From an uncultured Spirochaetota bacterium (GTDB taxonomy: Bacteria; Spirochaetota; Spirochaetia; SZUA-6; Fen-1364), in contig CAWGAA010000001.1 of assembly GCA_963820525.1 (NCBI GenBank), positions 128,001 through 192,000 of the forward strand: a stretch of DNA of 64,000 bases, written 5' to 3'. The first letter of the stretch is position 1. Every line of letters begins with the position of its first letter. This document shows, one piece after another, positions 18,465 through 20,602 of this stretch. The notes under the pieces are model-generated. The model did no database searches and was not told the origin of the DNA. It worked only from the letters and a program-made list of their open reading frames with translations. The position numbers and the translations under genes were made by a program.

Positions 18465-19208
18465 TCACCAGACACCGAGATCTTCCAGGGCGCGAAGTGC
18501 CCGCGCCCCCCAGTCCCGGTTTGCCTGCGGATTGGCTGGGCTGGGGTGGTGAATACCCGCCGTCTTCACCGTACTGAGCCCGGCTGACTCGGCAAGCGTT
18601 CTCACCCGGGCCTCGGCGAAGCGCCCGATCCCGACAATCCACTGGGGCTGTAGGGCCTCGATAATCGAGAGAAGGTGCTCGTCCAAGAGGGGAAAGAGAA
18701 GCTCCCGGTCTTTCCGTTTCAGCTTGTCCGGCGTCAGGTTTCTTCCTGCCTCATCAAGAAAGAGGAGGGGGCAGTAGTTGGTGACGAACTGGTCTCGAAA
18801 GAACCGATCCGCCGTGTCGAAGCGCTCCCGGAAAAGAGCCCACAACCGCCTTCCGCTCACCTCGCTTCGATGACAGTCAAAGCCCAGAACAGGAAGCCGC
18901 TGATGCGTACCAACCGGTGTGTCTACCCGGCCGCTTATCTTGAGCCAACCACGAACCGTCTCCACCTCGCCGAAGGGCACGCCTGTCTGGGCCATTCCCC
19001 AGGGCCCCGGGTTCATGCCGATGAACACGACCCGCTTGCGGCCGTTTGCATACTTGCTCACGTATGCCTCATACGTACGGCGCGCGTACAAGAGCGGGTT
19101 GTAGGCATGGCGTACGGGCGGGCTGAAGCTGAGCGCGCTCAACCGCCTGGCGAGCCGTCGGGATGCGGAGATGAGAGGTGCGCTTGGGGGGGGAAAACCG
19201 CTGGCCAT
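18465..19208 (-). CDS. SMUG1-family (family 3) uracil-DNA glycosylase
   Basis: GMNPGPWGMAQTGVPFG, RSEVSGRRLW, NYCPL, HPSPANP. Confidence 0.93.
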   Translation of the reverse strand: MASGFPPPSAPLISASRRLARRLSALSFSPPVRHAYNPLLYARRTYEAYVSKYANGRKRVVFIGMNPGPWGMAQTGVPFGEVETVRGWLKISGRVDTPVGTHQRLPVLGFDCHRSEVSGRRLWALFRERFDTADRFFRDQFVTNYCPLLFLDEAGRNLTPDKLKRKDRELLFPLLDEHLLSIIEALQPQWIVGIGRFAEARVRTLAESAGLSTVKTAGIHHPSPANPQANRDWGARALRALEDLGVW

Positions 19209-19289
19209 GGCCTCATGATAGCGGCCGGAGGGTTGACAGGGAAGAAGATAATCTGGATAAAGGTCTTTCGGTACGTCAGGAGGAGAAGC

Positions 19290-19385
19290 ATGGCCAAGGT
19301 GAGCTGGAACAAGACCTGGAGCTTGAAGATGAGAAAGCGGAACAAGAAAAGGAAGGGAAAGAACAGAAGCTCCAAGAAGAAATGA
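19290..19385 (+). CDS. 31-aa Lys/Arg-rich protein, candidate bS22-like ribosomal protein
   Basis: AGGAGG RBS; MAKVSWNKTWSLKMRKRNKKRKGKNRSSKKK; stop overlaps the next ATG (ATGA). Confidence 0.65.
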   Translation: MAKVSWNKTWSLKMRKRNKKRKGKNRSSKKK

Positions 19386-20602
19386 GCCTCGAAACCGCGC
19401 GATACCGGCTTTCGTCCCTCGGTGTCCTCGCAATCCTCTCCTTACTCTCGGCATCCTCGCCTCTGTTTGCGGAAGAGCTTTCCGGGGTCGTTCTTCCGCC
19501 CGGCGGCAAGCTGTCACTCATCGAAAAGTCCGACCTTCGCCGCTACGAGGGCGGGAAGTTCGTCGGCCTCGAGTACCGGGAGGTGAGAGGCGTCCTCGAT
19601 TGGCGGCAGAGCGAAGACGGCAGTCTGGTTCAGGGCACGTTCTACGTGCTCGAGCAGCTCAGCCACGATGGCGCCCATACCGCGCGGAAGATCGACGAAG
19701 CTGTTCCCGCCGCCTTCATAATCCGCCCCGACGGCACCTATATCGTGGAGGGAAAAGGGGCATATCCAACCCTTCGCGGTTTCCCGGTGCTTCCGGCAAA
19801 GGACCTCGCAACCGGAGATACCTGGAAAGCCCCCGGGACCAGGCTTGTCGACCCCTTCAATGAAGGAAAGTTCACGAGGATCGGGATTTATTCAGCCTAC
19901 CGCTATGAGGGCGAAAAGGACATCGGCGGAGCGCCTTCACGCATCATAAGCGCGAAATATGCGCTTCGCTACAAGAAGGGCGACGACGCCGACGGAGATG
20001 AACACCTGGCCAGCGTGTCAGGAAGCCACACGGTTTCCATTCAGCTCGCCGGCGCTTCGGGCGCCCTTTCCTTCATGCGCGACAGGGTCGAGGAAACGTA
20101 CCAGCTCGATGACGGGCGTTCCCTGACGTACAAGGGATTCATCCTGACCTGGTTCAACGCCGCCGCGCCGCTGGACCGAGACAAGATTGCGGGAAGGATC
20201 GCCCAGACGCTCAAGGATTCCGGGGCCCAGGACGTGGAGGTCAGGCAGAAGAAAGAGGGCGTGAGCGTATCCCTGAACAAGATCCATTTCATCGCGGAGC
20301 AAGCCTCGGTTCTCCCCGAAGAGCTGCCCCGGCTTCAAGCTGTCGCGGACGCCCTCAAGCAGATTCCCGGCCGTACCTTCCGCGTGGTCGGTCACACCGC
20401 CAGGGTCGGTACGGAAAAGAGCCAGCAAGAGCTTTCCGTGCGCAGGGCAAAGGCAATCGTTGATTACCTGGTTTCAGAGGGGATACCGGCGGATCGTTTC
20501 CTCTACGAGGGGAGGGGAGGTACCGAGCCCGTGGCCCCCAACGACACGGAAGAGAACATGGCCAAGAACAGGCGGGTTGAAATCGTCATCCTCGAAGACT
20601 AG
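19382..20602 (+). CDS. OmpA-family peptidoglycan-binding protein (Treponema TpN50-like)
   Basis: Signal peptide; C-terminal OmpA domain (VVGHTA, LSVRRAKAIVDYL, NRRVEI). Confidence 0.88.
   Translation: MSLETARYRLSSLGVLAILSLLSASSPLFAEELSGVVLPPGGKLSLIEKSDLRRYEGGKFVGLEYREVRGVLDWRQSEDGSLVQGTFYVLEQLSHDGAHTARKIDEAVPAAFIIRPDGTYIVEGKGAYPTLRGFPVLPAKDLATGDTWKAPGTRLVDPFNEGKFTRIGIYSAYRYEGEKDIGGAPSRIISAKYALRYKKGDDADGDEHLASVSGSHTVSIQLAGASGALSFMRDRVEETYQLDDGRSLTYKGFILTWFNAAAPLDRDKIAGRIAQTLKDSGAQDVEVRQKKEGVSVSLNKIHFIAEQASVLPEELPRLQAVADALKQIPGRTFRVVGHTARVGTEKSQQELSVRRAKAIVDYLVSEGIPADRFLYEGRGGTEPVAPNDTEENMAKNRRVEIVILED

Follow-up and report, generated by a model that had tools for sequence, protein, structure and literature searches.

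What does the 31-codon open reading frame (ORF) between a uracil-DNA glycosylase gene and an OmpA-family gene of this uncultured spirochaete encode? The initial annotation had proposed a divergent form of the ribosomal protein bS22, with another small nucleic-acid-binding protein as the fallback. The features concerned are listed below, numbered within the window (i.e. the whole stretch of 64,000 nucleotides that was analyzed).

18465..19208, minus strand: uracil-DNA glycosylase superfamily gene (PF03167; udg), divergent from the ORF (family scan)
19233..19261, plus strand: TTGACA (-35 box) at 19233-19238 and a weak -10 candidate at 19256-19261; no consensus promoter in the source genome
19278..19283, plus strand: Shine-Dalgarno sequence AGGAGG, with a 6-nt spacer to the ATG at 19290
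19290..19385, plus strand: gene of 31 codons; its peptide bears Trp, is rich in Lys and Arg, and founds an unnamed family (frame conservation, pN/pS)
19290..19337, plus strand: codons 1-16, near-invariant block with W6, N7, T9, W10, K13, M14, and R15 (columns of 95 distinct peptides)
19338..19382, plus strand: codons 17-31, basic tail (columns of 95 distinct peptides)
19382..20602, plus strand: OmpA-family gene (PF00691) with a signal-peptide-like start (family scan; orthologue alignment)

Several details of the initial annotation were read in the sequence as described, i.e. the AGGAGG ribosome-binding site, the content of Lys and Arg (15 of 31 residues), the lack of Asp and Glu, and the overlap of the stop codon (TGA, 19383-19385) with the start codon of ompA (ATG, 19382-19384) in an ATGA overlap. 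The TTGACA hexamer is likewise present at 19233, but a consensus -10 box is missing 16-18 nt behind it, and a promoter scan of the region upstream of the ORF returned 0 consensus sites. Among the 2,483 short ORFs of the genome that are led by a Shine-Dalgarno sequence, only three are as basic: this ORF, canonical bS22, and one other. The frame had also been described as uncalled. The exact 31-aa protein is already present in public protein collections, where its cluster is named just 'hypothetical protein'; the product is unnamed rather than never called. The ORF finder displayed the frame solely as the tail of a 236-aa frame starting at 18675, antisense to udg. This in-frame extension is not conserved, the open frames of relatives measuring 40-139 aa.

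An ompA coding sequence truly beginning upstream would have spoken against a separate small gene. A start of ompA at 19178 was rejected, as four orthologues align from query residue 83-96 on, past the Met at 19382, and start with a signal-peptide-like stretch of their own. The start of ompA (window 19382-19470) has no Shine-Dalgarno sequence of its own ahead of 19382. Together with the stop overlap, this suggests that in the source genome ompA may rely on translation coupled to that of the ORF.

Conservation was analyzed by a search of 101 genomes, among them the source genome (G000) and 24 further genomes of the same family. One strong match each was detected in 18 of these 24 (19/25 with the source genome), and 16 of the 18 copies were intact ORFs of 30-34 residues, starting with ATG in 15 cases and with GTG in one. 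The copies of G014 and G018 (L018:1501 and L019:1501) were one base short in the same G/A run, giving frames of 72 and 60 residues, which probably reflects a homopolymer assembly error. Across 27 distinct DNA copies from 28 loci, pN/pS was 0.128 in the ORF frame vs 0.45-2.39 in the other five frames, and within codons 2-26 the variable columns numbered 10, 9, and 21 at codon positions 1, 2, and 3. GGAGG preceded the start codon in 26 of the 28 loci with enough upstream DNA (28/30 loci had enough). The relatives also keep a sigma70-like promoter at a distance matching the TTGACA of the source genome, with a mean score, in kin that are not independent, of 7.61 vs 4.65 ± 0.43 for 200 shuffles.

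At the peptide level, 95 distinct sequences of at most 35 residues were compared. Residues 1-16 are nearly fixed save positions 8, 11, and 12; residues 17-22 are variable yet basic; G23 and N25 are invariant, and K24 is present in 94 of the 95. Family members measure 30-34 residues, with 38-50% Lys plus Arg and at most two acidic residues. AlphaFold2 predicted a helix for residues 6-30 (mean pLDDT 77; 89 for residues 11-20). Peptide identity between the source genome and four relatives was 68-80%. For the same pairs, ribosomal proteins were 63-100% identical (uL30 73-75%, uL18 67-73%) and the neighbour enzymes MurC, MiaA, YicC, and a kinase 59-72%, so that the peptide stands at or above these enzymes. 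The ORF is a genuine gene, present once per genome and under purifying selection within a single family of spirochaetes. The frame is thus conserved in relatives, a lack of which the initial annotation had named as refuting its proposal, and its reading of a genuine small gene that encodes a very basic peptide is borne out by the 18 relatives and the low pN/pS.

The range of this gene is narrow. With a 32-row profile, none of the 67 genomes from seven sister families gave a match, and 400 genomes across the phylum returned 14 weak matches, all of which were read and none of which was a small start-to-stop ORF. A pattern search in a collection of 185,579 species gave 409 stretches, of which 17 were confirmed, each from a record titled as a MAG of Spirochaetota or Spirochaetia; a metagenome scan covering 17 of 64 parts added 11 loci. 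Protein searches yielded 12 representatives at 50% and 78 clusters at 90%, the latter without any functional name or Pfam domain. By eye, the protein collection was seen to cluster 30-residue members with 485-residue terminase-like proteins (P0038, P0043, and P0045); this co-clustering is an artefact, since the 485-residue proteins lack the family motif. Positional homologues were sought at 30 tRNA-Glu loci of the sister families by a scan that, as a control, recovered 16 of the 19 family copies. None was found; two short basic ORFs were encountered, both dissimilar. The ORF family is therefore either new-born or diverged beyond recognition.

Further searches returned no named relative. PHROGs gave 0 families for the ORF and Rfam 0 matches around it, and the phage and plasmid collections held no match to the family. 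PDB sequences gave nothing when the larger alignment was used; a match to archaeal S8e at E 3.4 vanished with that alignment. In the ESM Atlas, the best score, to unnamed clusters, was 0.84, below the usable level, and no named match was listed. Fold searches with the predicted single helix gave no Foldseek match and a best Z of 3.8, to generic helices, which is uninformative. A match to a viral contig was attributed to chance (12 residues, antisense to a long frame). No longer fused forms were found among 7,985 candidates, which is weak evidence. In the literature, we found no match to the N-terminal heptapeptide and, by title or abstract, no paper on the family, which small-protein catalogues in supplements could nevertheless hold.

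At the loci of the 18 relatives, neither ompA nor udg was found beside the ORF, in flanks of up to 1.5 kb on a side. This neighbourhood is peculiar to the source genome among the genomes compared, and the search upstream of ompA genes suggested in the initial annotation would miss the family. In 14 of the 18 relatives the ORF stands back-to-back with tRNA-Glu(TTC), and in two it lies directly behind tRNA-Gly, giving tRNA adjacency in 16/18; the other two have neither tRNA beside the ORF, one of these loci ending early upstream. Downstream frames vary among the relatives, several being convergent on the opposite strand, and no partner gene travels with the ORF. It thus changes its surroundings as one unit, and this speaks against a leader peptide. 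Five of the six family genomes without the ORF also lack tRNA-Glu(TTC) in their assemblies. In G006 (91% complete), the tRNA-Glu locus is present with a different gene behind the tRNA, and the ORF is missing, a probable loss. The gene in its place (L101:300-1500) encodes a membrane protein with, by eye, a LuxR-like C terminus, and the -10 box at this locus looks decayed.

Is the peptide bS22? We located bS22 by a short motif in three Borrelia-like genomes and one Treponema-like genome and built a profile, which matches PDB 8fmw_V (E 5e-16). By profile search, canonical bS22 is present in 97 of the 101 genomes, including the source genome and 23 of its 24 family relatives. The canonical gene of the source genome (G000:C2:703793-703888) has a GTG start and lies directly behind miaA as in Borrelia-like genomes; searched with the bS22 profile at E ≤ 10, the source genome gave this gene as the sole match (C2:703796), and the ORF was not matched. 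The bS22 sequence was identical in 7/7 family copies read, and the ORF peptide is less conserved than bS22. The profile comparison proposed in the initial annotation was run with hhalign and gave a probability of 3.9% over 6 columns. The alignment score between the two was reached by 854 of 2000 column shuffles and, in a second test, by 462 of 1000 shuffles. The conserved N-terminal residues of bS22 and its THK are absent from the ORF peptide, in line with the earlier remark that its N terminus, which carries two Trp residues, differs. PF08213 did not match the ORF, and true spirochaete bS22 likewise fails this model; Pfam and NCBIfam scans gave 0 families for the ORF and also 0 for true bS22, so that these blanks carry no weight. 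What the ORF shares with bS22 is a class of size and character (30-34 residues, very basic, predicted helical). As judged from these comparisons, the ORF is not bS22 and its likeness to bS22 is one of composition only. The proposal of bS22, or of a detectable variant of it, is therefore set aside, given the separate canonical gene and a score at the level of shuffles, while the fallback of another small nucleic-acid-binding protein fits.

The ORF also does not stand in for any other small ribosomal protein that was tested. Genes for bS21, bL32, bL33, and bL35 were present in 5/5 genomes tested, bL34 in 23/23, and uL30 in 30/30, and the S10-spc-alpha operon with bL36 was complete in six family genomes. 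The ORF, which lies outside every ribosomal operon, comes on top of a normal complement of small ribosomal proteins, and it takes the place of none of those tested. No match at the ORF was given at E ≤ 10 by the bTHX/bS31 model TIGR04560 (the Thermus control matched, and one control passed the cut-off) or by the eL41/eS32 model PF05162, which passed its cut-off in 0/14 control genomes. In G096 (L142:4681-4800), a gene for a small basic protein begins just a few bases past the 5S rRNA gene; we take it to be bTHX-like. Kinship of this gene with the ORF was rejected, 899 of 1000 shuffles reaching the ORF score. The source genome holds a candidate for bL38 of the Borrelia type (bb0162 homologue) at G000:C2:458398-458553 (tblastn E 2e-4), which apparently has Cys-x-Cys and Cys-x2-Cys, could bind zinc, and has no NCBIfam match. 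The ORF itself was rejected as bL38 (~55 residues), with which it shares the first residues alone (24/1000 shuffles, one of 11 comparisons). Among these 11 shuffle-controlled comparisons, the lowest counts were those for the uS3 N terminus of G005 (8/1000) and bL38 (24/1000); both were chosen after a likeness had been noticed, and neither survives correction. The motif NKTWS was seen in uS3 N termini at L254:8154, L255:8357, L256, L257, and L258, possibly by chance. An origin as a split-off extension of a ribosomal protein was also discarded: the S10-spc-alpha proteins of six family and 12 other genomes displayed no family-wide C-terminal shortening, with N termini checked for uL30 and uS3 only.

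The rRNAs and the rescue genes of the family were also surveyed. uL30 is short in the source family, without the Borrelia-type extension, and is as a rule short in the sister families too. The 5S rRNA measures 114 nt in the source family, while full-length matches in the sister families are mostly 112-118 nt, many of them 114. The 23S rRNA has 24 strict family-diagnostic columns; departures number 40-47 vs 6-95 in other genomes and are not unusual. Several extra 5S copies and scattered fragments of the 23S 3′ end occur outside full operons in family genomes (G000:C3:327885-328914, C2:79332, and C2:475221; similar in G014, G018, G019, G021, and G022). The source genome carries tmRNA, an SmpB-like gene, and ArfB (over the cut-off); its RF1 lies near G000:C3 position 291,000 and its RF2 near G000:C1 position 421,500.

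On the grounds of anatomy, conservation rate, and precedent, the peptide may be a family-specific accessory ribosomal peptide like CLaSP or bL37, whose Trp helix docks in an rRNA pocket while the Lys/Arg tail lies on the backbone; we give this model an even chance of being right. Residues 1-16 would form a helix that fits a defined rRNA pocket, W6 and W10 being stacked on bases, and the tail, in which Gly-Lys-Asn is fixed, would run along the phosphate backbone. The pocket of bS22 is probably taken by bS22. A candidate site is the cleft between 5S and 23S rRNA in which bL37, CLaSP, and the Borrelia uL30 extension bind; this cleft may be free since uL30 is short in the source family. The role of the peptide would be stabilizing and dispensable. 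An almost constant length (30-34 residues) and a block of 16 fixed residues would suit a tight pocket of folded RNA, for which the ribosome is the usual host. We also counted in favour the pN/pS, the gene's own expression signals, its rare basic composition, a rate like that of ribosomal proteins, the tRNA adjacency in 16/18 relatives, the CLaSP precedent, and the dispensability of bL37 and bS22. The family is small, basic, conserved, confined to one lineage, and additional to the standard set, as expected of accessory peptides. Counted against were (i) the lack of a match to any ribosomal family and of a ribosomal operon, together with a conservation below that of bS22; (ii) the lack of a family-specific rRNA change, with 5S, 23S, and the short uL30 not distinctive; (iii) G006, which keeps the tRNA-Glu locus without the ORF; and (iv) a Lys plus Arg content of 38-50%, lower than the positive charge of bS22 and eL41, the basicity fitting DNA or general RNA binding equally well.

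Several other explanations share part of this evidence. A general nucleic-acid binder (a nucleoid-associated protein or an RNA chaperone), which would act outside the ribosome and cover DNA or RNA through its charge, would agree with the high Lys and Arg and few acidic residues, with a stand-alone gene under its own promoter, and with its loss from the locus in G006; the near-invariant, partly non-basic 16-residue block and the fixed length seem to exceed the needs of charge, and we regard this explanation as unlikely. A little less probable is a rescue factor like ArfT or ArfA, with its basic tail in the mRNA channel left empty in non-stop ribosomes and the Trp helix recruiting RF1/RF2. The invariant Gly in KKGKNR stands at the same end as in the ArfT motif, with 5/9 positions matching by eye, and short length and narrow range recall ArfT, but the match consists mostly of lysines and was spotted after the fact, and the genome already has tmRNA, an SmpB-like gene, and ArfB. 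Moreover, with PF03889 at E ≤ 1, 0/25 family genomes passed the cut-off and none of 7 weak matches lay at the ORF. A ribosome factor dating from the family's ancestor, in which rescue was invented independently, the Gly-Lys-Asn tail sensing the empty mRNA channel and the Trp helix activating a release factor, would be just as doubtful.

The spacing of W6, W10, and M14 (i, i+4, i+8) on the predicted helix would also permit a small regulator that uses its W-x3-W helix to bind a protein (RNA polymerase, a sigma factor, or a ribosomal protein such as uS14) while the tail holds nucleic acid. NKTWS is found in the uS3 N terminus of 5/6 family genomes, with 8/1000 shuffles scoring as well; this match was picked afterwards among 11 comparisons (~0.09 after correction), the motif is missing from the uS3 of the source genome itself (138/1000 shuffles), and an unfiltered HMM search of the uS3 loci did not report it. 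As no partner gene travels with the ORF either, we consider a regulator improbable. Still less is to be said for a diverged bS22 paralogue competing for the h27/h44/h45 pocket, which would explain the common length class and the KNR near the C terminus; the score is that of shuffles, and the N-terminal and THK residues are missing. The two genes do share a contig in 12/19 genomes, 4.5-71 kb apart, but this linkage follows from the conserved gene order tRNA-Glu, murC, yicC, kinase, miaA, bS22, which is broken in the source genome. The most improbable of all is a leader peptide that senses Trp on behalf of the downstream gene, or else a peptide acting on membranes. Two near-invariant Trp codons and, in the source genome, possible coupling to ompA via the ATGA overlap would favour a leader; downstream frames differ, several on the opposite strand, and Rfam gave no match. 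The hydrophobic moment of residues 4-21 is low (0.05), which speaks against membrane activity.

We conclude that this small-protein family of one spirochaete lineage is new and that its members probably act in the manner of accessory ribosomal peptides specific to a lineage. Were the peptide ribosomal, these spirochaetes would have a tiny basic peptide besides bS22 and a bL38-like protein. Like bL37 and CLaSP before it, it would then be an unrelated peptide that a single lineage has recruited to the ribosome, and here one found from genomes ahead of structure. With its sharp boundary (19/25 in the family, 0/67 in the sister families), it is a clear-cut case of a young gene whose constraint is at the level of ribosomal proteins. 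For annotation it carries a warning, as a 30-residue Lys/Arg-rich spirochaete ORF is not automatically bS22. Because a 31-mer can be synthesized, assays of binding and rescue would be cheap, though we met no cultured member of the family.

Among known systems, bS22 of Borrelia burgdorferi (bb0822, PDB 8FMW chain V; described in PMC10618245) and of Bacteroidota (PDB 7JIL) resembles the ORF product in having ~30 residues, a very basic and helical character, a KNR near the C terminus, and in being missed by Pfam and NCBIfam scans. The similarity stays at the level of composition, the ORF having two Trp residues in a different N terminus, and whereas bS22 spans the whole class, the ORF family spans one family, beside a separate canonical bS22. 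The site of bS22 is a pocket of 16S h2/h27/h44/h45. For bS22 and eL41, a positive charge of 55-65% is reported in PMC10085706. ArfT and ArfA share with the ORF peptide a short length, restriction to a lineage, and a basic C-terminal motif with a glycine. According to PMC6299226, ArfT is narrowly distributed and has 40 residues; close to its C terminus lies KKGGSTNKK, which resembles the KGKGS of ArfA, and its stop codon is preceded by neither a terminator nor an RNase III site. The ORF peptide is shorter (31 residues vs 40 in ArfT and 52-55 in ArfA) and does not match PF03889.

Also comparable are bL37 of Actinobacteria and the N-terminal extension of Borrelia uL30, each, like the ORF product, a short basic helix of narrow distribution (PMC10618245 and PMC10081302). 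The gene for bL37 lies outside ribosomal operons and can be dispensed with; deletions of bL37 and bS22 caused no growth defect in M. smegmatis, as stated in PMC10081302. The ORF displayed no sequence match to the Borrelia-like uL30 extension (279/1000 shuffles), and the PDB searches with the ORF family, by which alone bL37 was covered, returned no bL37 chain. PMC13392368 describes CLaSP as a basic peptide of 22 residues, unique to Coxiellaceae and seen by cryo-EM between 5S and 23S rRNA, at the same site to which bL37 and the Borrelia uL30 extension bind (also PMC10618245). There, CLaSP is extended, adjoins nusB, and goes with a shorter 5S rRNA, unlike the ORF peptide, which is predicted to be helical, lies beside tRNA genes, and accompanies a 5S rRNA that is not distinctively short. 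Tiny, basic, confined to one bacterial family, and unrelated in sequence to other ribosomal proteins, as the ORF peptide is, CLaSP is the closest precedent for the way in which that peptide may act.
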